Below are positions 4,333 through 19,958 of a stretch of DNA of 19,958 bases, piece by piece. Origin of the DNA: an uncultured Methanosarcinales archaeon (GTDB lineage: Archaea; Nanobdellota; Nanobdellia; Woesearchaeales; JAGVZT01). Position numbers and translations under genes: made by a program. The notes under the pieces were generated by a model that was given only the letters and a program-made list of their open reading frames with translations, did no database searches and was not told where the DNA came from. Within the stretch, counting starts at the first letter, position 1; each line of letters starts with the position of its first letter. Where the stretch lies: assembly GCA_964419615.1 (NCBI GenBank), contig CAYQPU010000033.1:1-19958 (forward strand), in the 5' to 3' direction.

Positions 4333-4372
4333 AATCTCTTTTTCAATTCTTAATTATATAGAACAAATAAAA

Positions 4373-4380
4373 TTTATAAA
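4373..4380 (+). promoter_or_regulatory. Archaeal TATA box for the 4403 gene (probably leaderless)
   Basis: TTTATAAA preceded by an A-rich BRE-like tract, ending 22 nt before ATG 4403. Confidence 0.55.
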
Positions 4381-4402
4381 CTTAGTAATCGTTCTAAGAA
4401 TA

Positions 4403-4858
4403 ATGAGGCCACAATACCATACTCTGATTAGTATAATTATTTCAATTCCAGTTTACTTCCTAACAAACTCCTTCACAGCTGCATTCCTGTGTATTTTAGC
4501 AGGAATATTTGTAGACATTGACCACTTACCTGATTACTGGCTCTATAGGCGAAAAATGGTTATTGACAGAAAGTTCTTTACCCAGGACTATCATGTGATG
4601 TTTGGTAGAATATTTGTTATTTTACATTGTTTTGAATTTGTGTTAGTGATGCTAATTATTTACAATATGACAAAATACACTCCAATTATTGGAGCAATTG
4701 TTGGTTATACTGCACATTTGATAACAGACTCATTAACAAATGGAGTTCATCCTCTAACTTACTTTTTAACCTATAGATTAATAAAGAAATTTGATACAAA
4801 GATTTTGTTGGAAGCACCAAGATGGAAGAAGAACAAATCGATTATTGGAAACCAGTAA
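4403..4858 (+). CDS. Membrane-bound metal-dependent hydrolase (YdjM/DUF457-like)
   Basis: N-terminal HT, DIDH, ILH and AHLITD motifs between hydrophobic helices. Confidence 0.7.
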   Translation: MRPQYHTLISIIISIPVYFLTNSFTAAFLCILAGIFVDIDHLPDYWLYRRKMVIDRKFFTQDYHVMFGRIFVILHCFEFVLVMLIIYNMTKYTPIIGAIVGYTAHLITDSLTNGVHPLTYFLTYRLIKKFDTKILLEAPRWKKNKSIIGNQ

Positions 4859-5448
4859 GAGTAATTATAGCTCTGGTCTTGATCTTTATTATTGTATTAA
4901 TGATAATTCCAAATTACTATGTTAAATTAGATCCCGAACCAAAACCTGTCCAATTCCAAGATGTTGGAGTAGAAGTCAAACTAAGAAATCAATCAATAAA
5001 AGTAAATTCTACATCAGAGTTTGCCAAATTTGTTCAGCCAAAAAATCCTGAAATAAAATATATTGCAAACAGGATCTCAACACAAGCCTGTGAATCATCA
5101 ACCATATGCTATGCAAAAGCTCAGTATTATTATGTGAGGGACAATATTAACTACATCAAAGATCCAATAAGATCTGAATACATTGAACCTCCAATTGAAG
5201 TATTTGCTTCAGGAGGTGGAGATTGTGAATCTGGTTCCATTCTTTTAGCATCATTATTAGAATCAATTGGAGTAAATGCTCAGTTAGTATTCACAACAAA
5301 TCATGCATATGTTAGAATCAAACTAGATGAAGCTCAAAATAAATACAAACAAGACGGTTGGATCTATCTGGATTGGACTTGTGATGAATGTGAATTTGGG
5401 GAAGTTCCATGGTCAAATCAGGAAAGATATTATTTAGAAGTTCCTTGA
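4822..5448 (+). CDS. Membrane-anchored transglutaminase-like (papain-fold) protein
   Basis: N-terminal TM; GGGDCESGSILLASLLESIG (Cys), NHAY (His), WIYLD (Asp) triad. Overlaps the upstream gene by 37 nt. Confidence 0.85.
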   Translation: MEEEQIDYWKPVRVIIALVLIFIIVLMIIPNYYVKLDPEPKPVQFQDVGVEVKLRNQSIKVNSTSEFAKFVQPKNPEIKYIANRISTQACESSTICYAKAQYYYVRDNINYIKDPIRSEYIEPPIEVFASGGGDCESGSILLASLLESIGVNAQLVFTTNHAYVRIKLDEAQNKYKQDGWIYLDWTCDECEFGEVPWSNQERYYLEVP

Positions 5449-5535
5449 AAAATAATGTTTGTTAATTTATTGGTTTATCACAATTTAGTGGTAAAAAACA
5501 AAACTAATTTAAATTAAAGTGAATCTTTCATATAT

Positions 5536-6285
5536 ATGGAAGCTAATGATTCATCTGGTAAAACATTCCCACATGAAAATTGGAATACGGATTATCTTAT
5601 TGAAACTGATGAATTCGCTGAATTTGCACAATCTGAGCTAGATATTATATTTGAAAAAAATCCTCATCCTTATGTATCAGAATTAACTTTTAACCACAAA
5701 GGAGAACCATATGCAGACTATTTGAGAATCAAGGCAAGAGGAGGATGCAAATTGGCAGCTCATTCTTTAGTAATAAATGAACCAAAGAAAATTGTACAAT
5801 TTAGTTTTTTATATGAATATATGATGGTTCCATTTCATAAACCAGGTTATGCAAAAGGTTTGACATCTCAAATATTTGTTAATCCATATGCCTTCAGGTT
5901 ACCTCCAAACCAATTAATTTCAGCATTATATTATCATGAATACAAACATGCAAAACAATATGCTGAAGGTTTTGATATTGGAGATGTAACACTTGATTCT
6001 CATAATGTGAATTTGCTACGTAATGGATTACTTTCCATCGTTGCTGACATAGTCATCTGTTCTCAAGTCTTATCAAGTGAGGATCCAAGTTTGGATGAAG
6101 AACATAGAGAAAAAGATAGAAAATATATGAATATCCTACAAGAAAAATTTGTAGAACTAATAGTACCTTACAAACAGCCCTTACTTATGAAACTGTTGGG
6201 ATTTCCTGAAAAAAAAGCACCTAATCATTTTGAAAAACTAGTTGTTGCAGAATGCGAAAATTTACTTTTGGAACATGTACTATAA
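5536..6285 (+). CDS. Hypothetical protein with HExxH (zincin-like) motif
   Basis: 249-aa ORF; IFVNP...LISALYYHEYKHAKQ; TATA-like TTTAAATT at 5508-5515. Confidence 0.6.
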   Translation: MEANDSSGKTFPHENWNTDYLIETDEFAEFAQSELDIIFEKNPHPYVSELTFNHKGEPYADYLRIKARGGCKLAAHSLVINEPKKIVQFSFLYEYMMVPFHKPGYAKGLTSQIFVNPYAFRLPPNQLISALYYHEYKHAKQYAEGFDIGDVTLDSHNVNLLRNGLLSIVADIVICSQVLSSEDPSLDEEHREKDRKYMNILQEKFVELIVPYKQPLLMKLLGFPEKKAPNHFEKLVVAECENLLLEHVL

Positions 6286-6315
6286 AACTAATTATAAAAT
6301 ACATAAGAATCCAAT

Positions 6316-6723
6316 TTAGTTAGATATTGCCTGTTCTAAAGCATTAACAAAACCTCTTTCATAATAATTCTTAACACCTGCAAACACTGCAATAGATAAT
6401 GTCCATGAAATTAAAGAATACAAGGACATATGATTTGAATCACCACCTGTAAAATAGGTTAAGACACCTACTCCTAAACCAATAACTAATGAAGCTGCTA
6501 AAGGAACAAGCTCAGAACCAAGAACAGAAGAGTAACTTTGGTATTTGTTTCTGGCCATTATCAAATTATCAATTGATACCTCCATTCCATCTGTAATATT
6601 TTCTAATTGAGTAATAATTTGCTCTTTAGGTAAATGTTTCACATCCTCACCAACTAAATATTCATAAATTTCACTAAGAATCTGCTCTCCATTTGGCTTG
6701 TCTTGAGTTAAAGCATTGTACAT
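6316..6723 (-). CDS. Hypothetical membrane protein (2 TM)
   Basis: 135 aa; hydrophobic LVPLAASLVIGLGVGVLTYF and LYSLISWTLSIAVFAGV; minus-strand TTTATAAT about 22 nt upstream of the ATG. Confidence 0.7.
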   Translation of the reverse strand: MYNALTQDKPNGEQILSEIYEYLVGEDVKHLPKEQIITQLENITDGMEVSIDNLIMARNKYQSYSSVLGSELVPLAASLVIGLGVGVLTYFTGGDSNHMSLYSLISWTLSIAVFAGVKNYYERGFVNALEQAISN

Positions 6724-6809
6724 ACCAAATAGGTAATTATATGAATTATAAATGTTTTTCTCAATTTAATCAAATATAGATATTATTTAAACTAAAATCA
6801 GGAGTTACA

Positions 6810-7469
6810 TTGATAAACAAGATTTACAAAATACTTTTTAATAAATATGGACCACAAGGGTGGTGGCCATTGCTCGAACTAGGTGAGGTATCATACAAAC
6901 CTGGCTCAAAACAATATGGTGGTTATCATCCAGGAGACTATTCATATCCAAAAACAGATGGCCAAAGATTTGAAATATGTGTTGGAGCAATTCTTACACA
7001 GAACACAAGTTGGAACAATGTATCCAAAGCTCTGCTTGAATTACATAAAACAAATATGTTGGATCCTAGTGCTATCTTGGAAACAGGTGATGAGACTCTT
7101 CACACTTTAATCAAATCAGCAGGCTACTTTAGACAAAAGAGAAAGAAACTCAAAAACTTCTCAGAATTCTTCATCAAACTAAAAAACAAAACACCCACTA
7201 GAGAGCAATTACTATCTGTTTGGGGTGTTGGTCCAGAAACAGCAGATTCAATCTTGCTCTATGCTTACAAACAACCCGAATTTGTAATAGATACTTACAC
7301 AAAAAGATTACTTCTAAGAAAAGGTTTGGTATCTGAAAAAGCAACCTATAATGAAATCAAAGCTCTATTTGAGAACAATCTGAAAAAAGATTACAAGATG
7401 TTTCAGGAATATCATGCACTGATTGTGGAGCATAATAAATCTGTAAAGCAAATGTCACATTTAAATTAA
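6810..7469 (+). CDS. Endonuclease III-related HhH-GPD DNA glycosylase (MJ1434-like), no Fe-S cluster
   Basis: GAILTQNTSWNNV, AGYFRQK, LLSVWGVGPETADSILLYA, FVIDTY; TTG start with GGAG at 6801-6804. Confidence 0.85.
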   Translation: MINKIYKILFNKYGPQGWWPLLELGEVSYKPGSKQYGGYHPGDYSYPKTDGQRFEICVGAILTQNTSWNNVSKALLELHKTNMLDPSAILETGDETLHTLIKSAGYFRQKRKKLKNFSEFFIKLKNKTPTREQLLSVWGVGPETADSILLYAYKQPEFVIDTYTKRLLLRKGLVSEKATYNEIKALFENNLKKDYKMFQEYHALIVEHNKSVKQMSHLN

Positions 7470-7488
7470 TATTATAAGAAACAAAAGA

Positions 7489-7515
7489 TTTATATAATCA
7501 TTATAATTATTATAT
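7489..7515 (+). promoter_or_regulatory. TATA box overlapped by a 24-bp palindrome (candidate TA operator)
   Basis: TTTATATA at 7489-7496; ATATAATCATTATAATTATTATAT at 7492-7515 pairs at 11 of 12 positions; GGTGA SD at 7533-7537. Confidence 0.55.
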
Positions 7516-7543
7516 TTGTTATAGTGCTTAAAGGTGATTTTAT

Positions 7544-7744
7544 ATGAATACAACAATTGCAATATCTACAACTATTAGGGACAAGATCAAAGAATTTGGT
7601 GCAAAGGGAGAAACTTACGACGAAATACTAGCAAGACTTTTAAATAGTGCTAAGGAAAGACAATTACAAGATTTATTAATGAATTCAGAAGAATGCGTTG
7701 AAATTGATGAAGCACTAAAAAAAGCTAGGAAAAGATGGCAATAG
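7544..7744 (+). CDS. Putative antitoxin (RHH/CopG-like N-terminal DNA-binding domain)
   Basis: 66 aa; TTIAISTTIRDKIKEFGAKGETYDEILARLL matches the small archaeal strand-helix-helix antitoxin pattern; overlaps the next gene by 10 nt. Confidence 0.7.
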   Translation: MNTTIAISTTIRDKIKEFGAKGETYDEILARLLNSAKERQLQDLLMNSEECVEIDEALKKARKRWQ

Positions 7745-8073
7745 TTGTCATAACAAAAACACTAGAGAAAGAGATTAATAATAAATTCAAGCAAGAATCA
7801 GTTACTATTTTTTCTATGATGCAAGAATTGAAAACCAATCCCAAAAAAGGTCATATTGTGGGAGTTGTTGGAAGAATTCTTATTAAAGAGCTTAAATACA
7901 AGAAATTTAGATATTACTTTATTACAGATGGATATAAGATTAAATTCTTAAAAACTGAAGAACTAAAGAATCTGATAATCAAATTTGTTAGAATGTCTGA
8001 TAAGAAAACTCAACAAAAAGTAATTGATGAGATTAAATCTGTGTTGAGAAACCTTGGAGAGGACAGTTTTTAA
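7735..8073 (+). CDS. Putative RelE/ParE-superfamily toxin
   Basis: 112 aa, very basic; VVITKTLEKE..., ELKTNPKKG, IKELKYKKFRYYF resemble the RelE/ParE fold; coupled to the antitoxin-like gene. Confidence 0.55.
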   Translation: MAIVVITKTLEKEINNKFKQESVTIFSMMQELKTNPKKGHIVGVVGRILIKELKYKKFRYYFITDGYKIKFLKTEELKNLIIKFVRMSDKKTQQKVIDEIKSVLRNLGEDSF

Positions 8074-8131
8074 TAGTTTTCAATGTAATTCTGTAGAAAA
8101 ACTTAAATACTACTAATCAGTTACAACTTTC

Positions 8132-8653
8132 ATGGGGCAAGGTGGACAAGGTTATACAGGTCAAATGGATGATGAAACAAGATTAAAGTTTTATAGACAG
8201 TTTAATACATGTAAAATTAAAAATAATGCGCAGGTGAAATTCACAGGTTTTGGCAATGCGAAGTTCTCAATCTTGATCAATCTATATGACCTTGTGGAAA
8301 ATGAAGAGGATCTTGATTTACGTGAACAAAATGAACTGATTGCTTATGTTTATACATCATTAGGTTTCATTACTTCAGAATATGTAAGAAACAATGTTTC
8401 AGACACTTGGGGTTATGAAGATGAATTTGTTGAATTCTTGAATGGTGTTGCTACACAGGTTTCAATGCTTGCTTGGAGAGTAGCTGAGTTTTTTAATCAT
8501 TGGTATACTGTTGGTAATCCTGGTTTTGATTCTCCTTTGTATACAAATATTGCAGCAACATTAAGTAAAATGGACAGACTTGACATAAATCACTTAGGGA
8601 TGGAAGTTGATGCATTAGAAAGAAAACTTGGAACAGAATTTCCTCCCACTTAA
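8132..8653 (+). CDS. Hypothetical protein
   Basis: 173-aa ORF; TATA-like CTTAAATA at 8102-8109. Confidence 0.6.
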   Translation: MGQGGQGYTGQMDDETRLKFYRQFNTCKIKNNAQVKFTGFGNAKFSILINLYDLVENEEDLDLREQNELIAYVYTSLGFITSEYVRNNVSDTWGYEDEFVEFLNGVATQVSMLAWRVAEFFNHWYTVGNPGFDSPLYTNIAATLSKMDRLDINHLGMEVDALERKLGTEFPPT

Positions 8654-9577
8654 TTAATAATTCAATCGCTCCTGTAAATTATTTATTGGCATGCTAACCA
8701 TACCTCCAATCAACTCTGACTCAGCAATACTATCAACAACTATTTCCATTGCTTCATAATCAGGCCTGTTTGGTGTCCAGTATGATTGAGTGGACAAAGC
8801 ACCAGTGTCTTGATACATAGCATACACTTTTTCATGGCACATTACAAGTTCATATCCTTGATTCAATAAAGGTTTGGTAATAATTTCCTCATCAAAATTG
8901 TCTTGTAGAACACTAAACTTTTCATTACCTCCCCACATTGTTTTAAACCCATCATGCCACATACTAAACATGAACCTATCCAAAACCAAGGCATCTTCCT
9001 TTTTCTCATATAAAAAAGCCTCTTCACCAAATCCATAATGTGCTGGTGAATGTGAGACAATTAGTTTTGATCCCTTACTTAAGCACTGTTGCATCACATT
9101 TAAGAAATGTCCAAACTCTCCGTGAGCCATAAAATAAGGTACAGCTGTATTGGCGCATCTTACCATATCAACTGCTTTTAGTAATTTTTCCATAGATTCA
9201 GATGGACAAAGTATATCTCCAATCATAACCTCTTGGCAACCATTTGTAATAAAGAGGGGATCAATCTCAATCCCAGCAAACCCATATCCATGCATGTAAG
9301 CTTGACCCATTAACTCATAATAAGTAGGAGCACCTGCACCCAAACCAACTTCTAGAGCATATTCTGGATTAAGTGCATCAATAACAGACTGAGTTGCAGA
9401 AGTTCTTCCAGCACATGTGTTCCCATAACCATCATTATCTTCTTGAGCTCTTTTCCTAAGTTCAAGTAATTTATCACAAGATATTTGAGCAGCTCTAAAA
9501 TCCAGTAGAATTTCCACCTCATCAAATTCATAATTGTTTGAATCTAATTTATCTAAAAATTCTGTTAAGTTTTCCAT
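8654..9577 (-). CDS. Class I SAM-dependent methyltransferase, CheR-like motifs
   Basis: ALEVGLGAG (motif I), FAGIEID, VMIGDIL, VDMVRCANTAVPYF, LSKGSKLIV. Confidence 0.65.
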   Translation of the reverse strand: MENLTEFLDKLDSNNYEFDEVEILLDFRAAQISCDKLLELRKRAQEDNDGYGNTCAGRTSATQSVIDALNPEYALEVGLGAGAPTYYELMGQAYMHGYGFAGIEIDPLFITNGCQEVMIGDILCPSESMEKLLKAVDMVRCANTAVPYFMAHGEFGHFLNVMQQCLSKGSKLIVSHSPAHYGFGEEAFLYEKKEDALVLDRFMFSMWHDGFKTMWGGNEKFSVLQDNFDEEIITKPLLNQGYELVMCHEKVYAMYQDTGALSTQSYWTPNRPDYEAMEIVVDSIAESELIGGMVSMPINNLQERLNY

Positions 9578-9652
9578 GCTCAGGGGGAATATATTAATAA
9601 TATATAATTTTGGTTGCAGTCATCATATGGAGTTGGTTGTTAAAAAACCAAA

Positions 9653-10435
9653 TCAAAACCTATGCCTGGTCCTTCTCATCTCTCTGTAATACAATCCATC
9701 AAATCTGTTCTTATAGAATGCAAATACTGAACCTGCTCCAGCTGCAGCTCCAACAGCAGCAGCTATCCAAGATATAGTGGTTATTTCACTCTGCCTCAGA
9801 TGACCTTTACCAGGTATTCCTAAAACTCTATGAATATCTATAGAATAATCTCCAGCAGCAAGCATCTTTTCTTCTAATGGCATGTTCTGCGCTAACCCAT
9901 AAAGAATATTCTGTATGACAGGTTGAGCTTCCACTAGTCTATCACGAACATTATAAACTTCAGCTAAATTCTTCGAATGATTGTTAATTGACCCAGCTTG
10001 TCGTCTAGGTTTCCATGGAGGAGGATTAAAATATCCATAAATACAGCTAGGATCAAAATAGAAATCAGAATCTCCTGCTTGGTTAATCTCTTCTAATATG
10101 TTTTCAAAATTGGACACAAAAAAACCTTTGCTCTGAGCCAGAGTCAAATAAGCCTTTGCTATCTTACTATGTAGATTGTTAAATCTATTAGTATCTGCCG
10201 TTGGTAAATGCATCTCACTAAAAGGTTTTTCAAAAACAGTTGTTTGTAATCCAGATCTTATAACTCTAGCAGATTGTGCAATCTGTTCTGGACTTTTCCA
10301 CTGAGAATGACTCCTGGAATCACATTCATATTCATCATGACAACTTTCAGTTCTATTACCATCTGCATCTGTTGAGTAAGTACATACCCTTTCCCAATGA
10401 CCGCTTTCACTATATGTGTGACTAAACGCCCCCAT
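9653..10435 (-). CDS. Hypothetical membrane protein; probably the 3' part of a gene interrupted by TAA at 10514-10516
   Basis: 260 aa with C-terminal TM (ISWIAAAVGAAAGAGSVFAFY); the frame stays open upstream to 10513. Confidence 0.65.
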   Translation of the reverse strand: MGAFSHTYSESGHWERVCTYSTDADGNRTESCHDEYECDSRSHSQWKSPEQIAQSARVIRSGLQTTVFEKPFSEMHLPTADTNRFNNLHSKIAKAYLTLAQSKGFFVSNFENILEEINQAGDSDFYFDPSCIYGYFNPPPWKPRRQAGSINNHSKNLAEVYNVRDRLVEAQPVIQNILYGLAQNMPLEEKMLAAGDYSIDIHRVLGIPGKGHLRQSEITTISWIAAAVGAAAGAGSVFAFYKNRFDGLYYREMRRTRHRF

Positions 10436-10513
10436 TATACCATTACTTCTTATAATATCAATAGCTGAATGAAAACTCTGGTCATGGTATAAAGGAATAA
10501 CTTCCTCTGAAAG

Positions 10514-11773
10514 TTATGAAGCCCAAATCAAATTGTCCCACATAAGATTCATCAGCTGACTATCAGCCAGAGCTCTTAACATTCTTTCTTGGGCGACAGA
10601 TTCATCGTCTGCACCATCATTAACATCATTTTCAACCGGATCATTTTCAAGTGGAGCATTAACATCTTCCTCATCAATCCATAGTCTTTTATAACCTTCA
10701 TCCCCCCAAAATGCTGCATTTGCACCATATTGTGCAAATTCCAAAGCAGCCGCAGGACCAACCTCCTGTTCCTTGAATATGATGTCAGCTAGTTCAGACT
10801 CTCTGTTCTTATCCCAGTAATTCAATAATGCAAATGTACCTTTGTTTAGGGCTAATCCAAACAATCCTGCAACAACGACTCCAGCAACAATAGCATAAGT
10901 TGATGGTTCAACGCTCTTTAGAGCACCTAACCTATCTTCTATATTTTCCCGTAAGGTTGTTTGATGGATATGCCATGTACCAAGTTCAGGATTGGTACTA
11001 GCTTCACCAATCTTTTTCTTAATTCTTTTTTGGTATTTTCTTGTGAATGCATGTTTATTACTGTGCTCTCTTGACTGAATCTCAACATTTTTTACTATTA
11101 ATTCTAATTCTGCTCTGTCAAATAACTCCCCATATTCCGTTGCAAGATCTCCATAAAGATCAGTTATATCATGAAAGTTTGTTTCTCTTGTAGCAAAACC
11201 ATGTGCAGTGTGTCTAATATCCTGCAAAAGATCAGAATAATCTTGTATGTCAAGATCGGATCTACTTCCTATTCTTTCCTCCAGTCTTTCTTCAAGCTCT
11301 GTAACAGACTTATAAATTTTCATCTGGTTATAATTACGCTTTTGTTCCAAATCATGCTTCCATTTGTTAGAAACTTTTTTTACATTGTTACCATGGAAAA
11401 GTGCGATTATCCTAGCTAGACCCCCAGGATCACTTGGAACTCCCCTCAACTCCCCTCCTCTGTGTTCAGGCCGGATTATTTTAGCTTCTTCAGATAGTTC
11501 AGATACATCTATTTTTGGAAGAATTTTGTTAGCTATTCCAGTTAGAATGTAAGGAAGATTAATCCAAGTCTCAGTAAGAGCATACATTGGCCCATGCTTT
11601 TTAATTCTATCAATACCACTTCTATGTAATCCCTTACCATGTTGGATGGTGTCAAAAGTACAAGCTATAAGTGGTGCTATTCCTAAGGTATCTAACTCTT
11701 CAAAACCTTCAACATCTAGCTGGTCAAATTCATGGGAATTAAACTGTTGGTTGAACTGGGTGTTGTATCTCAT
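10514..11773 (-). CDS. Hypothetical membrane protein; probably the 5' part of the same interrupted gene
   Basis: 419 aa with TM YAIVAGVVVAGLFGLAL and an acidic linker; same frame as 9653..10435. Confidence 0.7.
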   Translation of the reverse strand: MRYNTQFNQQFNSHEFDQLDVEGFEELDTLGIAPLIACTFDTIQHGKGLHRSGIDRIKKHGPMYALTETWINLPYILTGIANKILPKIDVSELSEEAKIIRPEHRGGELRGVPSDPGGLARIIALFHGNNVKKVSNKWKHDLEQKRNYNQMKIYKSVTELEERLEERIGSRSDLDIQDYSDLLQDIRHTAHGFATRETNFHDITDLYGDLATEYGELFDRAELELIVKNVEIQSREHSNKHAFTRKYQKRIKKKIGEASTNPELGTWHIHQTTLRENIEDRLGALKSVEPSTYAIVAGVVVAGLFGLALNKGTFALLNYWDKNRESELADIIFKEQEVGPAAALEFAQYGANAAFWGDEGYKRLWIDEEDVNAPLENDPVENDVNDGADDESVAQERMLRALADSQLMNLMWDNLIWAS

Positions 11774-11892
11774 TTTAATTATATGTAAAAAAAGAATGAA
11801 ATTCCATATATAAATCTTACTTAATTTACCACTATAAAGTGCTATGCAACTGTGCTAAATCTACTAAAAATCAATAACTTGATAATATTCTT

Positions 11893-12279
11893 TTATCTGT
11901 ACATGAAAGGAGCAACATTAATCTCATGTTCTAGCTCGTTTAGACCATAAACTCCATATGAACCATTAGAATCAATTATGACCAGTCTCTCATTTACTAA
12001 AGCCATTTTTGGATTATCTTGTGCAATAAATTGACCATTACTAACTTCTTTTTCTAATTCTCCATTTTCAGCTGAAATCTTATATACATTCTTTTCGTCA
12101 GCTGCATAAATAAATCCATTATGTAGAGCAAATCCAAACAATTCCCTAAAATCTATATCTCTACCTGTGATCCATAGTCTATCTTCTTGGGTTACACTAA
12201 ATGCTTCTATACTACTGTGATCCATCCTGTAGAATCTGTCATTGTCATGGTCTGCAATTATTTCGTGGATTTTGTTCAT
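11893..12279 (-). CDS. Hypothetical protein (128 aa, beta-propeller-fragment-like); start revised from 12360 to 12279
   Basis: Minus-strand TTTATATA at 12309-12302 lies about 22 nt before ATG 12279 (MNKIHEII). Short beta strands such as GFIYAADEKNVYKIS. Confidence 0.6.
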   Translation of the reverse strand: MNKIHEIIADHDNDRFYRMDHSSIEAFSVTQEDRLWITGRDIDFRELFGFALHNGFIYAADEKNVYKISAENGELEKEVSNGQFIAQDNPKMALVNERLVIIDSNGSYGVYGLNELEHEINVAPFMYR

Positions 12280-12301
12280 AAAATGAAGAGATCTAAACAA
12301 A

Positions 12302-12357
12302 TATATAAACTTTTTTACTATGAAGTTAATAACAAATACCTCAGAAACATTTAAATA
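12302..12357. promoter_or_regulatory. Back-to-back divergent TATA boxes
   Basis: TTTATATA on the minus strand (12309-12302) and TTTAAATA on the plus strand (12350-12357), each 22-26 nt from an ATG. Confidence 0.55.
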
Positions 12358-12383
12358 CAAAACCGAACGAAATTCTCTTTACA

Positions 12384-13061
12384 ATGAAAAAATTAATTGC
12401 TATTCTATTATTAATATTGTTAGTTGGATGCACACAAGAACCTGTAGCTGAACAGGAAGTTTCAGAAGAGCCAATGCAAGAAGATTTACCTTTGGAAGCA
12501 GAGATAATTGAACCTCCTGAAGAACCATTGGCACAAGAGATTACCGCATTGTTTGCTAGGAACTCCAAAATAACAAGTTATGAATATATCTACAAAGGAG
12601 ACAGCCCACAAACTATTACATACTACATCAAAGGTGAAAAAATATGGGCAAGTTATCCTCAAGTCCAGGAATATGGCGGATTTGAATTCTATGATGTATA
12701 CATGGACTCAAAAATTGCCACTCTAATTTGTGCTGATGTGGATAAGTGCAAAGGTAAGAAAGCAAAGGAAGCTCCTTTATCTAAATTTGTTCCAATAACT
12801 CCATTAGAAATTATCAGCCAAATTAGCAATGGTGAAATCACAGAAACAACTCAAATTGAAAATAGAGACACATCAGTGGTATCATATACAAATGCTGATG
12901 GAAATCAAGAAAGAATATGGATATGGGATTATTGGGGTATTCCAGTCAAAAGAGAAATCACCAAAACAGATAGTAAAGAAGTAATTGCCTATGACAATCT
13001 TGTTGTAAACTCTGTAAAAGATGAGCAGGTAACATTGCCTGATGATTTGGAGATGCAATGA
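12384..13061 (+). CDS. Lipoprotein with acidic linker and putative LolA-like beta-fold
   Basis: MKKLIAILLLILLVGC lipobox; Glu/Pro linker; RIWIWDYWGIPVKREIT pattern. Confidence 0.7.
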   Translation: MKKLIAILLLILLVGCTQEPVAEQEVSEEPMQEDLPLEAEIIEPPEEPLAQEITALFARNSKITSYEYIYKGDSPQTITYYIKGEKIWASYPQVQEYGGFEFYDVYMDSKIATLICADVDKCKGKKAKEAPLSKFVPITPLEIISQISNGEITETTQIENRDTSVVSYTNADGNQERIWIWDYWGIPVKREITKTDSKEVIAYDNLVVNSVKDEQVTLPDDLEMQ

Positions 13062-13576
13062 ACCTATTATTCATTTTTGGTATTATTTTAATGGCACTAA
13101 TTCTATTTGTAGTTCTGAAGGTAGCTAAGAGATTGATTAAAGTTGTATTCAGTTTGATCTTCATATTGCTATTAATAAGCCTGGTTTTTGGATTTTTTGT
13201 TTTCAGAGACTTTCAAGATTTCCAGGAAAATTTCTTTGACTCTAAAAATACTTTCTTAGTGCAGAAAAATGGAACAATAACCATGGGATTTAGTGCGATT
13301 GGTTTTGTTGAAGACAAAGCTCTGCTAAATGATCAAGAAATACAGGAATTACAACAATATTATGAACAGAAAGATTTCTTATCAATGGTTGATGATGAAT
13401 ATAAAATTTTTATAATTGACATGCAAATTGCTCCAGAAGACATGCAGGATTTCAGCATGGATGTTATCTTTGAGCAAGCCAAGTTAGTTGAAGTTATTCC
13501 TGAAAGCCCAATGTTTATGGCCATAAAATATCTGCCGTGGCTTGCTAATTTCAAATCTGGAGTAAATCAAGGCTAA
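13058..13576 (+). CDS. Hypothetical membrane protein (2 N-terminal TM)
   Basis: 172 aa; ATGA overlap with the lipoprotein gene. Confidence 0.75.
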   Translation: MNLLFIFGIILMALILFVVLKVAKRLIKVVFSLIFILLLISLVFGFFVFRDFQDFQENFFDSKNTFLVQKNGTITMGFSAIGFVEDKALLNDQEIQELQQYYEQKDFLSMVDDEYKIFIIDMQIAPEDMQDFSMDVIFEQAKLVEVIPESPMFMAIKYLPWLANFKSGVNQG

Positions 13577-13601
13577 TAATAACTTACCTGTTTACAAAAA
13601 A

Positions 13602-14405
13602 CTAAAGCACGATTCTGTAAACCTCAAATGCTTCTGCATATTTAGGTTCTTCACTAAATAACTTAAAAGAAGGTGGGCTAAAATACTTTGCTGCTTTGTG
13701 AACATCTCCTATAAAACCTCCAACCTGAGAAGGAAAACAGTTAATAAGAAGTGATGACTTGCTATCCCAATCAAATTGGTTCATGGGATAAAAGGCATTT
13801 GGAGCGAAATTAACAGTTTTTCTGGGACAACACATTATTAAAATGCTTGAAACATCCTTTGCTGCAGTAATTGATGCTTTTGATACAGCTACATGGTCCC
13901 TATGTTCATCATTCTCAGAATGAGTGTACAACTCATCTGGTTCTATACATAAAATAACTCCACCTAATCTTGCAACTAGGTCTCTTTGTTGTTCCAATGC
14001 ATTATTTGGTAAATTCAAATAAAAAACTCCCGAAATTCCAGTCTGCCCAGCTGTTTGTTTAATTAAATATTCATTGTATTCTTCAATACTTTCTGTCCAG
14101 TCCTCATTACTATCTCTATTTCTTACATCTCTTCCAATTGATAAAGCAGCAGCTTGACTCTCAATTATTCTTTCTCCTGGAATAATCCCCTGAGCTGCTT
14201 CCCCATTTGTACAGATAGCATAAAATATTGCGTACTCCTGTTCAATCATTTCTTTAATTTTTGCTGAACAACCAATCTCAATGTCATCAGGATGTGCACC
14301 AATAAAAAGAGCACGTTTATCATAGACTTCTAATTCCCTCCCAAGATCAGATATTGTGACCGGAAAATAATTTAATTGGAAATTCCCTAGCGTAAGTTCT
14401 TCCAT
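13602..14405 (-). CDS. PIG-L/LmbE-family Zn-dependent de-N-acetylase; start revised from 14456 to 14405
   Basis: GAHPDDIEIG, TNGE, RIIES, EHRDH, FPSQ and AEAF motifs; GGAGGT SD inside the end of the upstream gene (GGAGGTCAATAG-T-ATG). Confidence 0.9.
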   Translation of the reverse strand: MEELTLGNFQLNYFPVTISDLGRELEVYDKRALFIGAHPDDIEIGCSAKIKEMIEQEYAIFYAICTNGEAAQGIIPGERIIESQAAALSIGRDVRNRDSNEDWTESIEEYNEYLIKQTAGQTGISGVFYLNLPNNALEQQRDLVARLGGVILCIEPDELYTHSENDEHRDHVAVSKASITAAKDVSSILIMCCPRKTVNFAPNAFYPMNQFDWDSKSSLLINCFPSQVGGFIGDVHKAAKYFSPPSFKLFSEEPKYAEAFEVYRIVL

Positions 14406-14406
14406 A

Positions 14407-15339
14407 CTATTGACCTCCAGGTAATTCAACCAAATCTTCAAAGAGAGAATTTCCATTGTTTCTTAACTCCAAAAATCTGCCATGTAAATATGGTCCCAAT
14501 TGTACTTTGGGAATATCAAAAAAGGGAATTGTAACAATATTTTCTGAATAATCAAAAAAAGTTTTTTGTCTGTACATCAGTTGGTTGGCAACATATTTTT
14601 CAGTATCTTCTCTTTGTTCACTATCAAGTTCAGGCATATGTGAGGGTAGTCGCAAAGATATCATATCTGGTTGAATCATGTAACTGTTACATATATCAAA
14701 AGCCTGTTGAATTTCCCTTGTTTTTACACTTGATGTTTTTACAGGAGAATTTTTGTCTCCTCTGTACCCAATTTCATTTAGTAAAACAATATTGCATTTG
14801 TCAGTGAGTTTATGCTTCAGATAGGCAACCGTTGGTAATGCATAATTTTGAACCTCTTTTGAGTCTAATGTTCCTCCTATTTCTATTAATAATTGTTTAG
14901 GAGATCCAAGACAGCTACATCTTTCAAGTATGTTGTAGGCAAAATATTTCATTTTATCAGGAACATTACTAGTACTATGTCTTCCTGCAACAAATGCATT
15001 AAAAAACAAATCAACATCGCCACCTAAAATAGAATTAATAGCACTAAACTCTAAACCTGGATTAAACCTCTTGTATGTTTCAAAATCATCAATGGCAATT
15101 GGTGATTCTCTCCTTGAAAAAACAAGTGCATCATTATCAATCTTAGAATCATAATTGCTCAAAAAAACAGAATCAAATTTCAAAATATGTCTATCATCAA
15201 GAACACTTGCAATATGTGCAGTTAAATGCCCTTTCCCAATGTCAGATAGATTATGTCCTAGAACAATTGTTACTGTTGTTTGCTCCCCAAACCAATTTTG
15301 TTCTATTAATTTATTCAGATCATCATTAACCCATGGCAT
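14407..15339 (-). CDS. Divergent stand-alone CTP synthase amidoligase (N-terminal) domain, no glutamine amidotransferase domain
   Basis: VLGHNLSDIGKG, LKFD, DDFETYKRF, LLIEIGGTL, KTREIQ and IQPDMISLR occur in PyrG order; ends at 310 aa. Confidence 0.8.
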   Translation of the reverse strand: MPWVNDDLNKLIEQNWFGEQTTVTIVLGHNLSDIGKGHLTAHIASVLDDRHILKFDSVFLSNYDSKIDNDALVFSRRESPIAIDDFETYKRFNPGLEFSAINSILGGDVDLFFNAFVAGRHSTSNVPDKMKYFAYNILERCSCLGSPKQLLIEIGGTLDSKEVQNYALPTVAYLKHKLTDKCNIVLLNEIGYRGDKNSPVKTSSVKTREIQQAFDICNSYMIQPDMISLRLPSHMPELDSEQREDTEKYVANQLMYRQKTFFDYSENIVTIPFFDIPKVQLGPYLHGRFLELRNNGNSLFEDLVELPGGQ

Positions 15340-15363
15340 ATTGAAAACAGGGAATAATCATAC

Positions 15364-15371
15364 ATATATAA
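15364..15371 (-). promoter_or_regulatory. TATA box for the CTPS-like/PIG-L operon
   Basis: TTATATAT on the minus strand, 24 nt before ATG 15339. Confidence 0.5.
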
Positions 15372-15425
15372 TTGTTACCATAATCAAGTGGTATACTAAA
15401 CCTGGTGTAGAGGTTAATCTGACTA

Positions 15426-15761
15426 TTAAATTTCTTGATTAAATTGGGGAATACAACAAAAATTCTGCAAATAATAATGGATATTAAATCTTAGTGGCTT
15501 TAATCTCTCCCAATGTAAGAAATCATCTGGATGGTAGTCAAGAGGTAAACCAATAACTCCTGTTTGACAAGCAATACCTATTCTTACTTTAACGAAACCA
15601 AACATTGGCCAAACATTATAATCATCAGTTTCATAAAAAAGATCTTTGTGAGAAATATCATTAACATAACGCTCATTTAGGAATTTTAAAGATCCCTCAA
15701 TGTGAGCATCCAAAACTCTTCCAAGATCATCATACTTATATTCTCTATCTATTAGATTCAT
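15426..15761 (-). CDS. Hypothetical protein
   Basis: 111-aa ORF filling the gap upstream of the CTPS-like gene; no family recognised. Confidence 0.5.
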   Translation of the reverse strand: MNLIDREYKYDDLGRVLDAHIEGSLKFLNERYVNDISHKDLFYETDDYNVWPMFGFVKVRIGIACQTGVIGLPLDYHPDDFLHWERLKPLRFNIHYYLQNFCCIPQFNQEI

Positions 15762-15845
15762 ATTAAAAAGAAATCTATTTTCATATAATAATCTTATTAA
15801 ATACTAATAGTAAGATATATAAACCAAAATCTACTAGCATAATTT

Positions 15846-16724
15846 ATGTACGAACAGATCACAGCTAACAAAAGAAAGACATTCCTATTATTCTTTTTAT
15901 TCATAGTTTTAATAATGGGTTTAGGTCTAGCATTTGACATTGCTTTTGGTCTAAATTACATGGGAATAGTGATTGCCTTTATTATTACAATTGTCTGGAG
16001 CTTAGTCAGCTATTTTTCAGGTGATAAAATTGTATTAAAAATGTCTGGTGCAAAAGAAGCTAATAAACGGGAACATGCTCACTTAATCAATTCTGTTGAG
16101 GGATTAGCAATTGCAGCTGGAATACCAAAGCCAAAAGTATATGTGATTGATGATCCTGCAATTAATGCATTTGCAACCGGAAGAAGCCCTGAACACTCAT
16201 CAGTTGCAGTAACATCTGGGGCAATCAAAAAACTAAATAGGCAAGAACTAGAAGGAGTCATAGCTCATGAACTAAGTCATGTTAAAAACTATGACATCCG
16301 AACCATGCTTCTAGCAGCAGTATTAGTTGGTGTGATTGCTCTGTTAAGTGATTTCATGATTAGATCATTTTGGTATGGAGGTAGAAGAAAAAAAGGATCT
16401 GGTTCATCAGGTGCAATTGGGATAGCAATTGGTATCGCAGCTGCAATTCTAGCACCATTAATAGCCAACCTAATTAAACTATCAATCTCACGAAAAAGAG
16501 AATATCTGGCAGATGCATCCGGCGCTATGCTCACAAGATACCCAAAAGGACTTGCAGATGCACTTAGAAAAATTGAACATGATCACACTCAATTAAAAAC
16601 AGCAACAAATGCAACTGCTCATCTATATATCTCAAATCCATTTAAGAAAAAAGGATTTTTTGTGAATATGTTTTCAACGCATCCACCTATTAAAGAAAGA
16701 ATCAAAGCTTTGGACAAAATGTGA
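15846..16724 (+). CDS. htpX: Membrane zinc metalloprotease HtpX (M48)
   Basis: INAFATGR, GVIAHELSHVKNYD, REYLADASGA, STHP; TATATAAA at 15816-15823. Confidence 0.95.
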   Translation: MYEQITANKRKTFLLFFLFIVLIMGLGLAFDIAFGLNYMGIVIAFIITIVWSLVSYFSGDKIVLKMSGAKEANKREHAHLINSVEGLAIAAGIPKPKVYVIDDPAINAFATGRSPEHSSVAVTSGAIKKLNRQELEGVIAHELSHVKNYDIRTMLLAAVLVGVIALLSDFMIRSFWYGGRRKKGSGSSGAIGIAIGIAAAILAPLIANLIKLSISRKREYLADASGAMLTRYPKGLADALRKIEHDHTQLKTATNATAHLYISNPFKKKGFFVNMFSTHPPIKERIKALDKM

Positions 16725-16738
16725 TAAAGATTTAACTT

Positions 16739-16882
16739 CTAAAACAGATAGCTGCTTGAACTTTTTGATGGTTCTACATGGGCAACATCTCTCGCATAAT
16801 ACATACTCAAAATTCCCATTGGAATGCCTATTCCAAAAACTGCGACAATACTACTAACAAATACAACTGCATCCTTGTTCAT
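16739..16882 (-). CDS. Small single-pass membrane protein (47 aa), absent from the ORF track
   Basis: Hand translation: MNKDAVVFVSSIVAVFGIGIPMGILSMYYARDVAHVEPSKSSSSYLF*; fills most of the gap between htpX and the Hint gene. Confidence 0.5.
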   Translation of the reverse strand: MNKDAVVFVSSIVAVFGIGIPMGILSMYYARDVAHVEPSKSSSSYLF

Positions 16883-16914
16883 ATCAACAGAGAATCAAGT
16901 AATAAATAAAAAAC

Positions 16915-19485
16915 TTATGGTTGAACCCTCAATCCACCAGTCAGTTCTCTCCAATATCCAAATATTGGATCATTTTCTTCATAAAAAGAATGTATAAGAT
17001 GTGAATTTTTACTTGGCACATTTTCACAACTTTCTGGTTTTATATCATTAGAATACTTGCACATATCTGTATTAAACCCGCCATACTCTATATACAACAA
17101 TGCAAATTTTGAACCATCATGCCTTGTTGTCTCTGTTCTTGCAAGTACTGTTTTACCATTTATATTAGACACATAAATTCTATCAAATCTATGTGCTTTA
17201 TCCATGAAAGTTACAATGTTACTTGGAAGAGGATTAAAAATATGATTCAAAACATCATCAGATGGAGTCCTTAAAAGATTATTAAATTTATTCTTCCAAT
17301 TTGCAAACACAGGCAATAGCACATCACCCTCATTTTCTACACCATACACAAAGCTTCTCTGTTTGTGATTATACCATAAATTTCCATCCTGACACTTCTT
17401 AAACTTATTCTCATCATCCATAACATCATCACAATCTTTAGAATAACCTAAAAGATGATATAGTTTATCCATTGTCATATTTGGATTTAAAGACGAGCCA
17501 ATTGCCTGAATATTACCTTCCCCCCCAGTAAGCACACAAAACTTACCCAGACATGCACTATAATCACACTCACCAGTATTTAATAAATAATCACTCGCAA
17601 TCTCTCCGTCTGGGAAAATCTTTGTGATATAATTAAGAGATAATCTGGGATCTTCGCAAAAAACAACATAATCATCTGCATAATCATTATTTGCTTTCTG
17701 TAATAATTCCAAGGCAACATTCCTTGTTCTTGAGGTCCAATTTCCCTGCTCACACATATTATCAATAATATATTGAGTATCGCTAATACAAACCGGGCTT
17801 TTATTAGGATCAGCTAAAAAATAATTTTCAGGTATATCATTATAATTTTTATTTCCATTATTCAAAACAAGGCACTGTTCAGCTTTCTCACAACAACCAG
17901 TTTCTCTATTACCCCAACTATACCTCTCAAATTCTGAACTGTCATCACCACAGCATTCTCCTCCACTCCAGGAATAGCCCATTGCCTCACATAATTGTTG
18001 GTCATTGTCTGGATCTACTAAAAACTCAGCGTGTTTATTCCATTCTGGATACACTCCACTTTGATAATAACCAAAAGAATGTCTTGCCATCCCATACACA
18101 TTATAAGTTTCCCAGTTCCATCCCGGTTTAAATTCAACAATATATGATGAAACAATGCTGTTATTAATTTTGTTACGATTAGAAGGTCCAATCAATAAAC
18201 TGGATGTACCATCATAATTATCTAATACTGTGCTTCCACCTGCAGCTTGGCTCCAGCATTGTGTAGGATCTGAGACTGCATTTGCCATAACATAACCCTG
18301 TCCTCTTAACCAGCCAGCACCAACATATTCCACAAGTCTCTGCTCAAAATTAGCAGAACAACCAGTATCTCCCCCACCAGCTTCAGTATTGGAATATACT
18401 CTCTTTGGAGCTAAAGCAAGCCATATCTCATCTAAGTTATCTGCATCTATGCTGTCAGTGACCCTGACTGAGAATTTGTATTTTGCTGTGCTGAGTTTAG
18501 TGAAAGTGACAGCATCAACATCTAATTCAACAACACAATTAAGCGGGCAGACATCGCCAGCTTCTTTCTCATCACACACAGGTAATGCTCCGCAGTCAGC
18601 TTCACATTTGCCGTCTGCCTCCCTGTGGTATGAGTCGCAGCAGATTCCTCCTCCTTTGCAGAAGAATCCAGAAGGACAAGAGTCTGAAACCCATTGCTCT
18701 GATCCCTGGCCGCAATCAGGTGAACGGGTCTGTTTCTGTTCTCTCTTTGTTCCTGAACATCTAATTTCTCCTGTATTTGTCCAGGCACCAGGCACACAAG
18801 GGGGAGGGGGTGGTGGAGGAGGATCACCTTTATTATGAACCAACACACCACCTGCAAAAAAAGTGTTAGTGTTTGAAACCTTTTTTAGATTGTAAGTCTG
18901 GACTTCTTCTACAATATGAACAATACCAATAATTTTCACCCAATTATCTTGTTTAAAAACATAATCCCCTCTTTTAATTGGTTTAACATCCATACCTGCA
19001 TCTAAAAGAGTAATTTCAGGGATAATGGATGCCCAACCTTGATACTCAGAATTGTTAATATAAATTGGATGTTCATTTGTGACATTCAATTCAGTTCCAT
19101 CTTCAAATTTAATTGTATAATAATCTTTTCTAATTGGAGATTCTAGTTCTAATACAGTTACATTAATATATTCTTTTTTAAACTCATCATAACCAAGAAC
19201 AGTATCTCCAACTTTTACATCTTCGATTGGTACTTGAGAACCATTGGATAGTATTATGGGGGTACCTGGAAGGAAGCATGATGAACAACTATCCGTACAA
19301 GAAGGTCTACCTCCACAATCTATTGCAGGATCTGTCCAACAGCCAGGTTCACCCCCACAACAATAATAACGTCCACAATCATCTTGACAACCATCTGCAC
19401 TAACATCTCCTGCCAAAGAAACAAACATAACGCAAACAACAATTGAAAACAACAAGAATTGCTTATTAGATTTACTAGACTTCAT
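16915..19485 (-). CDS. Secreted Cys-rich protein with a Hint (intein-like/Hedgehog-type) autoprocessing domain
   Basis: Signal peptide aa 1-30, 8-Cys peptide aa 31-69, Hint aa 70-218, Pro8 linker, Cys-rich modules, CCGDD motif, large C-terminal domain; no evident C-terminal TM. Confidence 0.9.
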   Translation of the reverse strand: MKSSKSNKQFLLFSIVVCVMFVSLAGDVSADGCQDDCGRYYCCGGEPGCWTDPAIDCGGRPSCTDSCSSCFLPGTPIILSNGSQVPIEDVKVGDTVLGYDEFKKEYINVTVLELESPIRKDYYTIKFEDGTELNVTNEHPIYINNSEYQGWASIIPEITLLDAGMDVKPIKRGDYVFKQDNWVKIIGIVHIVEEVQTYNLKKVSNTNTFFAGGVLVHNKGDPPPPPPPPCVPGAWTNTGEIRCSGTKREQKQTRSPDCGQGSEQWVSDSCPSGFFCKGGGICCDSYHREADGKCEADCGALPVCDEKEAGDVCPLNCVVELDVDAVTFTKLSTAKYKFSVRVTDSIDADNLDEIWLALAPKRVYSNTEAGGGDTGCSANFEQRLVEYVGAGWLRGQGYVMANAVSDPTQCWSQAAGGSTVLDNYDGTSSLLIGPSNRNKINNSIVSSYIVEFKPGWNWETYNVYGMARHSFGYYQSGVYPEWNKHAEFLVDPDNDQQLCEAMGYSWSGGECCGDDSSEFERYSWGNRETGCCEKAEQCLVLNNGNKNYNDIPENYFLADPNKSPVCISDTQYIIDNMCEQGNWTSRTRNVALELLQKANNDYADDYVVFCEDPRLSLNYITKIFPDGEIASDYLLNTGECDYSACLGKFCVLTGGEGNIQAIGSSLNPNMTMDKLYHLLGYSKDCDDVMDDENKFKKCQDGNLWYNHKQRSFVYGVENEGDVLLPVFANWKNKFNNLLRTPSDDVLNHIFNPLPSNIVTFMDKAHRFDRIYVSNINGKTVLARTETTRHDGSKFALLYIEYGGFNTDMCKYSNDIKPESCENVPSKNSHLIHSFYEENDPIFGYWRELTGGLRVQP
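18832..19278 (-). other. Hint domain (149 aa), no homing endonuclease
   Basis: Block A CFLPGTPI, block B LNVTNEHPIY (TxxH), block F/G TYNL...FFAGGVLVHN followed by Lys. Confidence 0.9.
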
Positions 19486-19507
19486 CTTATCTCTACCCTT
19501 TCAAGAC

Positions 19508-19958
19508 TCATTTATCATCACCAACACTTATTTTTTCTAAATGCAAATCTTTTATCACAACATTACTATCTATTAGGGATGGGTAATCCCAGTATCTGGT
19601 AAAACCATCACCTAGTTTAGGAAACCAAACTTCATTAATTATTTTAATAGTTATATTGGTTTCATCACTTATTTTACCAATAGGAATCTTAAATTGCTTT
19701 AAATCAGATGAATTCAGGAAGATAAATTGTTGTTTTTTGTTTTCTTCACTTCCAATTGTGATCTCTATAATAGGGAAAGAAGAATCATAATTATTATTCC
19801 TTTCATAAAAAAATGTTATCTTATCACCTATAATTGTGTAATTTATTAATTTAAAATCAAAATCAAGATATGGATCATACTCATTTAGATAAGACATTCG
19901 GGTTCTAATATTTTTAGCAAAAAAATGATTTAGATGGAAATTATCAGTAAAAACATTA
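19508..19958 (-). CDS. C-terminal part of a hypothetical protein, 5'-truncated by the window edge
   Basis: The frame of 19508..19897 stays open to the window end (NVFTDNFHLNHFFAKNIRTR-MSYL...). Confidence 0.65.
   Translation of the reverse strand, partial: NVFTDNFHLNHFFAKNIRTRMSYLNEYDPYLDFDFKLINYTIIGDKITFFYERNNNYDSSFPIIEITIGSEENKKQQFIFLNSSDLKQFKIPIGKISDETNITIKIINEVWFPKLGDGFTRYWDYPSLIDSNVVIKDLHLEKISVGDDK

Follow-up and report, generated by a model that had tools for sequence, protein, structure and literature searches.

Does a Hint domain in an exported archaeal protein release a small peptide, or does it excise itself and rejoin its flanks, when the residue following its terminal His-Asn is lysine? 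Hint domains drive protein splicing and the maturation of Hedgehog proteins, and they are widely used as tools in protein engineering. The question is raised by an 856-residue protein (P0001) encoded on the minus strand of contig CAYQPU010000033.1 from an uncultured DPANN archaeon; positions 1–19,958 of this contig are the whole stretch of DNA analyzed here and are referred to as the window. An initial annotation dealt with positions 18832–19485, which correspond exactly to Met1–Asn218 within the 856-codon open reading frame (ORF; Table 1). It described a signal peptide, a 39-residue peptide with eight cysteines, and a Hint domain with Cys70, a TxxH motif, and a terminal His-Asn followed by lysine at the +1 position, and all of these elements are indeed present in the sequence. 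The view of an exported protein (with a predicted signal peptide) that possesses an intact Hint domain and a +1 residue other than Cys, Ser, or Thr also holds. Because the Hint domain is intact and lacks such a +1 residue, canonical intein splicing is excluded and autoprocessing through a thioester is expected. While thioester-type autoprocessing of an exported Hint protein can thus be retained from that annotation, its Hedgehog-like layout and its proposal that peptide release is the purpose of the system cannot. The best explanation at present, with a probability of about 0.45 for the reading as a whole, is that the product is a modular, disulfide-rich protein, exported through the Sec pathway of a DPANN (Woesearchaeota-type) archaeon and either secreted or located at the cell surface, in which a Hint domain resembling the A-type bacterial intein-like (BIL) domains would serve as a self-excising cassette between a Cys-rich N-terminal piece and a poly-Pro stalk.

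The Hint domain and its class

The Hint domain is recognized in the 856-residue protein by Pfam PF01079 (33.9 bits; cut-off 29.7) and by TIGR01445, intein_Nterm (25.4; cut-off 24.5), and the Pfam Intein_splicing family matches as well. The AlphaFold2 model is highly confident across residues 69–219 (predicted local distance difference test, pLDDT, > 95). The catalytic residues Cys70, Thr136, His139, His217, and Asn218 are all present. Block B reads Thr136-Asn-Glu-His139, and in an alignment of 36 sequences both Thr136 and His139 are invariant and Cys1 is conserved in at least 90%. Cys70 is the sole cysteine of the Hint domain, whereas the flanks contain 38 cysteines in 677 residues; eight would be expected in the Hint domain from the flank density (P about 2e-4).

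A Foldseek comparison with solved Hint structures (target TM-scores 0.8–0.88) gave BIL2 of Tetrahymena as the top match (6Y75/6TMM; E 8.7e-13, target TM 0.87–0.88, root-mean-square deviation 2.1 Å), followed by the C. thermocellum BIL (2LWY; E 1e-10), mini-inteins (about 1e-8), and Hedgehog (1AT0; 5.8e-8, rank 16). A profile built from eleven family members ranked BIL2 (2.7e-14) and the C. thermocellum BIL (3.9e-13) ahead of inteins (1e-8 or weaker) and the Hedgehog chain (7e-4). In both comparisons, the five top-ranking entries are BIL structures. The published definition of A-type BILs comprises a C-terminal His-Asn, a dispensable +1 nucleophile, the absence of an endonuclease, and placement within the variable parts of proteins that are not conserved and are often secreted (PMC4031507, PMC7765530). 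The present domain is of mini-intein size without a homing endonuclease, possesses Cys1 and TxxH, and ends in His-Asn without an obligatory +1 Cys, Ser, or Thr. It lies in a variable region of a non-conserved protein with a predicted signal peptide, and its family is spread over many unrelated architectures. Because every part of the definition is matched except for the archaeal host, we classify the domain, as judged from the sequence and the model, as A-type-BIL-like, and it is very probably an autoprocessing module of the BIL class.

The likeness to the A-type BILs (Amitai et al. 2003; Dassa et al. 2004; PDB 2LWY) therefore covers the mini-Hint, its catalytic motifs, and the variable region of a non-conserved exported protein. 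On the other hand, the flanks of the present family are nearly fixed (Ser at −1, Lys at +1, and Gly at +2), whereas the +1 residue varies among the described BILs, and the present family forms tandem arrays of up to seven copies, some with single-residue linkers. The C. thermocellum BIL reportedly has Ala at +1. That of M. magnetotacticum has Tyr (PMC4031507). BIL2, which resides in the polyubiquitin-like locus BUBL1 of Tetrahymena thermophila, is matched by the profile over its full length, including the W-x-S-x-x-P insert and block G (FFAxGVLxH). However, BIL2 is eukaryotic and cytoplasmic and lies between ubiquitin-like domains, whereas the present protein is predicted to be exported, and the identity is only about 23%. 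The lysine used by BIL2 is located in the downstream ubiquitin-like domain or in other targets, whereas here the lysine is the +1 residue itself.

In Hedgehog proteins, the Hint domain (Hog) is C-terminal and is followed by a sterol-recognition region, and an Asn-mediated cut at its C-terminal junction is absent. The present protein shares with Hog the Hint fold, the thioester chemistry of the N-terminal cysteine, and secretion, but it retains His-Asn and continues for 638 residues of unrelated modules after the Hint domain, with no tail resembling a sterol-recognition region. Neither the C-terminal position nor a recognition region was found, and the N-terminal piece is not a conserved signalling domain. 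Since BILs also outrank Hedgehog both by fold and by profile, the description as a Hedgehog-like layout was abandoned. The subtype check suggested in the initial annotation confirmed a Hint domain above the cut-offs of PF01079 and TIGR01445, but the closest class is BIL, not Hog.

The lysine junction as a family trait

A search of 1.84 billion representatives found at least 4,346 proteins of the family at E ≤ 0.001 and 1,339 at E ≤ 1e-10. Most of the homologs carry names of DPANN archaea (Nanoarchaeota, Woesearchaeota, Pacearchaeota, and Aenigmarchaeota), with a few from Patescibacteria and Thermoplasmata. The junction statistics were obtained from 203 proteins with 330 Hint copies, which are the best 150–200 matches of the family and relatives that are not independent. 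Cys1 is present in 312 of 315 copies, and the C-terminal His-Asn in 285 of 298. The +1 residue is Lys in 226 of 298 copies (76%) and Arg in 17, while Cys, Ser, and Thr together account for only 18. Gly occupies +2 in 47% of copies, and the −1 residue is Ser in 49–52%, with Cys or Gly in about 16% each. The +1 lysine is most conserved where the N-terminal flank (N-extein) is trivial, about three residues (35 of 38 copies). The junction HNKG-x-PPPPPPP recurs in P0004, P0030, P0031, P0012, and P0005. The +1 lysine is accordingly a trait of the family and not a peculiarity of the 856-residue protein. At the level of sequence, Ser(−1)/Cys1...His-Asn/Lys(+1)-Gly(+2) proves to be conserved as a single cassette in thousands of proteins, whatever the host (a slash in a motif marks a junction; within parentheses it separates alternatives).

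The flanks provide a further clue. The likeness in composition between the two flanks of Hint arrays was 0.386, compared with 0.351 (standard deviation 0.009) for shuffled pairs, and exceeded all 1000 shuffles, although the relatives are not independent. Typical examples are TTTSTTTS[Hint]KGTTPTTT and GGGGGGGS[Hint]KGGGGGG; such alike flanks look as if the cassette had been inserted within one linker. The Hint domains are 12-fold poorer in cysteine than their host proteins, in which the content outside the Hints is 3.7%. This depletion suggests that a single free thiol is retained within a disulfide-rich exported protein. In addition, Cys1 and the +1 lysine are fixed even where one of the two flanks is trivial, so that the two junction reactions appear to be coupled, as in splicing, rather than to be independent cuts.

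The positions of the Hint domains in their hosts are diverse. Among 190 proteins, the first Hint begins before residue 50 in 39, which consist at that end of a signal peptide and about three Gly/Ser residues (for example, ...VQA/GSS/CFLPGT), at residues 50–99 in 30, and beyond residue 500 in 31. Tandem arrays of two to seven Hints occur in 76 proteins, with linkers down to a single Lys. In the arrays of P0003, P0002, P0032, P0060, and P0066, the linkers shrink to as little as one residue (HN-K-CF...), and the +1 lysine of one Hint is then the −1 residue of the next. Some Hints lie at the extreme C-terminal end, followed only by Lys and 0–10 residues, and genuine stop codons were found at two independent genomic loci, L020 (G022:C6; HN/KYLGDKVVM-stop) and L023 (G047:C39; HN/KDGR-stop). 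P0175, P0184, P0188, P0151, and P0057 also have Hints at the C-terminal end, a Hedgehog-like placement in which His-Asn/Lys is kept nevertheless. In P0132, P0122, P0101, and P0125, the N-piece has a lipobox-like end (for example, ...LIAGC-SSS/C and ...LAGC-GGNS/C); processing by the Hint would then detach the protein from a lipid anchor or rejoin it to one. P0183, P0184, and P0205 have no signal peptide, start with MK..F.ADF..D..G..RLLE(I/V)NT, and end in Hints with ...HNK, an apparently cytoplasmic host context.

Two groups of hosts deserve separate mention. Tim44-like membrane proteins (P0060, P0066, P0082, and P0086) possess the same Gly/Ser/Cys...His-Asn/Lys-Gly arrangement (the residue before Cys1 being Gly or Ser), with the Hint placed extracellularly right after the signal peptide. 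The 856-residue protein differs from them in its host, its single Hint, its Cys-rich N-piece, its poly-Pro stalk, and the absence of a membrane anchor. P0024, P0025, P0027, P0028, and others are proteins of about 1,100 residues with two tandem Hints at about residues 440–750 (...GGS/C..HN/KC/C..HN/QK...). Both Hints were kept in 11 of 11 homologs of the N-terminal part of P0024, down to 49% identity. A search for a Hint-less allele with the N-extein of P0024 found none among the 11 homologs in the length range searched, and thus no empty site.

An independent sample from the same order gave matches in 42 of 151 genomes. The strong matches end in His-Asn/Lys, and the weak ones are canonical inteins with a +1 Ser. 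(The sample includes one unpublished genome, G118, whose match is a true intein and was not used.) The canonical inteins at L036, L037, L038, L040, and L043 occupy a conserved site, ...GKT(R/K)AGGQ/C, and end in ...VHN/SAQRFER, in contrast to the BIL-like Hints.

Putative mechanism of the cassette

The chemistry of the class offers a route to ligation. No +1 nucleophile is required for splicing and cleavage by type A BILs: the N-terminal junction is converted into a thioester, cyclization of Asn cuts the C-terminal junction, and the freed amine of the C-fragment can attack the thioester, with cleavage dominant and splicing beside it (PMC4031507). For BIL2, the depositors of the structure report splicing through an isopeptide bond of the lysine ε-amine (PMC8616854, section 2.4). 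By analogy, Cys70 of the present protein would attack the Ser69 carbonyl after export (N–S acyl shift) to form the thioester, and cyclization of Asn218 would cut the Asn218–Lys219 bond. An amine of Lys219 would then attack the thioester. Two amines come into question: the α-amine that the cut exposes, in line with the proposal for the C. thermocellum BIL, and the ε-amine, which the Tetrahymena BIL2 is reported to use. With the departure of the Hint domain, the 39-residue piece would become attached to Lys-Gly-Asp-Pro8 and everything that follows. Some of the peptide and of the C-fragment would be set free by hydrolysis as by-products.

A cassette that cuts itself out and rejoins its flanks is favored because Ser(−1), Lys(+1), and Gly(+2) travel with the Hint domain, the two junctions appear to be coupled, the flanks are alike, and the Hint domain is depleted in cysteine. 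The variability of the host also supports a cassette: five genomes of the same genus or family (93–100% complete) contain nothing that corresponds to residues 1–480, whereas the C-terminal domain occurs widely in the absence of a Hint. The parts of this proposal differ in strength. That ligation through Lys219 is the main outcome is a tentative view, which we would give somewhat less than an even chance. The more specific idea that a self-contained cassette carries its own nucleophile in the +1 lysine and that its flanks become joined by an amide to lysine, possibly an ε-isopeptide as reported for BIL2, seems unlikely.

Several observations weigh against a ligating cassette. Arg occurs at +1 in 6% of copies, and a replacement of Lys by Arg fits a role of charge better than a role as nucleophile. 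The lysine is kept when the C-extein is only 1–10 residues long, as confirmed by the stop codons of L020 and L023, and it also persists beside a trivial N-extein, for which ligation would have no obvious effect. The retention of both Hints in all 11 relatives of P0024 suggests that selection acts on a function of the Hints themselves or of the cleavage, beyond harmless self-removal. Cleavage products predominate for type A BILs (PMC4031507, PMC7765530). Autoprocessing of all family members is so far a prediction from sequence, and the family sample consists of the top 150–200 matches, relatives that are not independent.

Some of the same observations are explained by maturation through cleavage alone. 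The Hint domain would then be a self-removing pro-piece or a release latch: cyclization of Asn218 would free the protein from Lys219 onward, the thioester would be hydrolyzed, and the peptide and the Hint domain would be discarded. This fits the many relatives whose Hint directly follows the signal peptide, in which an N-extein of three residues leaves the C-fragment as the only meaningful product, and it agrees with the dominance of cleavage in type A BILs and with the conservation of tandem Hints in the P0024 family. However, Cys1 and Ser(−1) hardly vary even in proteins that have no upstream piece to be released, which is unexpected if the C-terminal cut alone matters, and a fixed +1 Lys-Gly is unnecessary for hydrolysis. 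We regard cleavage alone as somewhat unlikely, although it is the most serious of the alternatives to the ligating cassette.

The Cys-rich N-peptide

The initial annotation gave the main role to the N-peptide (Asp31–Ser69), which has cysteines at positions 33, 37, 42, 43, 49, 57, 63, and 67. On that view, a Hedgehog-like system would serve to release this 39-residue disulfide peptide or to attach it to a lipid or a molecule of the host, and the peptide would act as a signal, toxin, or tag. The order of signal peptide, short Cys-rich peptide, and Hint domain agrees with such a role, an outside nucleophile can in principle resolve the thioester, and short Cys-rich pieces, often with a CCG motif, precede the first Hint in roughly 15 of 190 relatives.

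The comparison with these relatives did not bear out a conserved peptide. BLAST alignments with P0031 and P0204, whose architectures are the most similar, start at Ser(−1), and upstream of it only the n-region of the signal peptide is aligned; a Pfam scan gave no match to the N-peptide. P0031, P0204, P0155, and P0002, the proteins of most similar architecture, have Cys-rich N-pieces of similar length, but all of the spacings are different. Whether the peptide is hypervariable with a fixed Cys spacing had been proposed as a check, and the spacing differs in every relative; among the approximately 15 Cys-rich N-pieces, inspection by eye found no fixed spacing, and only a loose CCG doublet recurs, which also occurs throughout the C-terminal parts of these proteins. 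The N-pieces of the other relatives are Gly/Ser-rich, end in a lipobox-like anchor, are absent, or extend over hundreds of residues. Homologs with a different N-terminal segment, which the annotation itself had named as evidence to the contrary, are thus common: the piece is trivial in 39 of 190 relatives and hundreds of residues long in others. In the AlphaFold2 model, the pLDDT of the N-peptide is below 50, with a thin alignment for this part. A knottin- or defensin-like peptide is consequently not indicated, as neither a conserved Cys framework nor, with this thin alignment, a confident small fold was found, and the release of a knottin-like peptide as the purpose of the system was not upheld.

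Other observations point in the same direction. Cys-rich filler of the same kind is found throughout these proteins, and the peptide is absent from the nearest relatives. Moreover, His-Asn/Lys is conserved although it is unneeded for Hedgehog-type processing, no sterol-recognition-like tail is present, and Hedgehog ranks below both BILs and inteins. A Hedgehog-like release or transfer of the peptide is thus quite improbable, and free peptide is most likely a by-product of the cassette at most.

The C-terminal domain and the remaining alternatives

Of 41 related genomes, 25 encode the C-terminal domain (residues 486–856); it forms the last part of large ORFs that otherwise differ from one another, and most of these ORFs lack a Hint. 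(The 41 genomes include one unpublished genome, G006, on which the result does not depend.) The domain has 21 invariant columns, several of which are Cys, and its model is confident. No Pfam family was matched, the ESM Atlas gave no usable match, and a Foldseek search against the PDB gave none at E ≤ 0.001. In a wide VIA-align comparison, the best score, Z 6.7 to the membrane-inserting lipoprotein TP0453 (3K8G), was not significant, and Rv0398c and TiME scored Z 4.7–4.9. Surface proteins of DPANN archaea may share this domain as a means of anchoring or binding.

These properties bear on a polymorphic toxin, in which a pre-toxin Hint (PT-HINT) would release a C-terminal toxin domain. In bacterial polymorphic toxins, the Hint domain serves as a releasing peptidase ahead of the toxin domain (PMC3482391), and precomputed PF07591 matches exist for many of the homologs. 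For the 856-residue protein, PF07591 gave an E-value of only 0.26. Its Hint domain is 270 residues ahead of the C-terminal domain instead of adjoining it, the C-terminal domain is conserved rather than polymorphic, and the C-extein contains 30 cysteines. There is no same-strand gene downstream as a candidate for immunity, the next gene being a convergent M48 peptidase. A toxin of this type is very improbable.

A canonical mobile (class 1) intein or an inactive structural remnant, to which the TIGR01445 and Pfam Intein_splicing matches might point, is hardly credible, since there is neither a +1 Cys, Ser, or Thr (the residue being Lys) nor a homing endonuclease, the host is a non-conserved, lineage-specific secreted protein, the catalytic residues are intact and conserved family-wide, and the true inteins of related genomes differ (GGQ/C...VHN/SAQRFER, +1 Ser).

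Gene organization and neighborhood

Table 1. Features of the Hint gene and overlapping or adjacent reading frames in the window
Feature	Position	Strand	Basis or remark
Whole gene, 856 residues (P0001)	16915–19485	−	ORF list; Cys-rich modular protein, predicted exported
Predicted signal peptide, residues 1–30, predicted cleavage VSA/DG	19396–19485	−	Hydropathy profile and −3/−1 rule
N-extein, 39 residues with 8 Cys, residues 31–69, ending Cys67-Ser-Ser before Cys70	19279–19395	−	Sequence
Mini-Hint, residues 70–218, 149 residues, without endonuclease insert	18832–19278	−	Pfam, TIGRFAM, AlphaFold2, Foldseek, profile
Cys70 (Cys1 of the Hint)	19276–19278	−	Catalytic residue
Thr136	19078–19080	−	Catalytic residue, block B
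His139	19069–19071	−	Catalytic residue, block B
His217	18835–18837	−	Catalytic residue
Asn218	18832–18834	−	Catalytic residue
Lys219 (+1), codon AAA	18829–18831	−	Directly after Asn218
Junction tail, Lys219-Gly220-Asp-Pro8	18799–18831	−	Sequence and family junction counts
Cys-rich small modules, residues 230–320, 12 Cys	18526–18798	−	Common to other Hint-bearing relatives
Middle region, residues 321–485	18031–18525	−	Only a K319L-like PKD match below threshold (E 0.41)
C-terminal alpha/beta domain, residues 486–856	16918–18030	−	Family comparison; model with predicted TM-score (pTM) 0.85
Upstream ORF	19508–19957	−	Same strand as the Hint gene; runs off the contig end
Overlapping ORF, 149 residues	18389–18838	+	Poly-Gly run on the plus strand
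Overlapping ORF, 111 residues	18522–18857	−	
Surface protein ORF, 1,443 residues	1–4332	+	Open at contig start; Big_13, Big_7, cadherin-like, PKD-like domains

The predicted signal peptide has a basic n-region (MKSSKSNK) and a hydrophobic core of 17–18 residues, with 11-residue Kyte-Doolittle windows of up to 3.1. A hydropathy scan of all 856 residues found neither a second membrane segment nor a C-terminal membrane anchor. A lipoprotein signal was considered and rejected, as ADGC is not a lipobox. Of the 40 cysteines of the protein, one lies in the signal peptide, eight lie in the N-peptide, one is Cys70, and 30 follow the Hint domain, so that the numbers on the two sides of the Hint (8 and 30) are both even. 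The Pro8 stretch of the junction tail is a stiff linker. Alignments to Hint-bearing relatives extend past the Hint domain to about residues 290–300.

The upstream ORF is probably co-transcribed with the Hint gene, because it lies on the same strand and stops 22 nucleotides ahead of the start codon; it was assigned to no family. The two overlapping ORFs were rejected as genes, since they arise as shadow frames from the poly-Pro and Cys-rich codons. The neighbors on the contig are the large surface protein with immunoglobulin-like (Ig), cadherin, and PKD domains, a transglutaminase-like protein, an HhH-GPD glycosylase, a PIG-L deacetylase, and the convergent M48 peptidase; none of them points to a dedicated partner, an immunity gene, or a peptide-modifying enzyme.

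The host genome (1.48 Mb, 99% complete) contains this single Hint of the family. A search for an ortholog in the same genus gave as its sole match a fragment of 68 residues at a contig end, without a Hint there, and a related-loci search with the 856-residue protein as a single query gave two loci. For the family, this protein is a new host context: one Hint separates a Cys-rich tip from a poly-Pro stalk, and the head that carries it is lineage-specific and joined to a C-terminal domain widespread in DPANN archaea.

Implications

Although the domain class is known, the very large clade of exported Hint domains with a fixed lysine junction is apparently undescribed; a search of open-access papers and preprints returned none that deals with a fixed +1 Lys or with Hint families of DPANN archaea. 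Our analysis shifts the focus from a supposed peptide signal to the chemistry of the junction and to the C-terminal domain common to many DPANN surface proteins. If the lysine is in fact the acceptor, the family would represent a natural splicing or ligation chemistry that needs no Cys, Ser, or Thr in the target. In DPANN archaea and bacteria of the candidate phyla radiation (CPR), protein splicing outside the cell would then exist in a distinct and very widespread form, independent of Cys, Ser, or Thr encoded by the host protein, and the family would offer insight into the way in which tiny symbiotic archaea reshape surface proteins that have already been exported.

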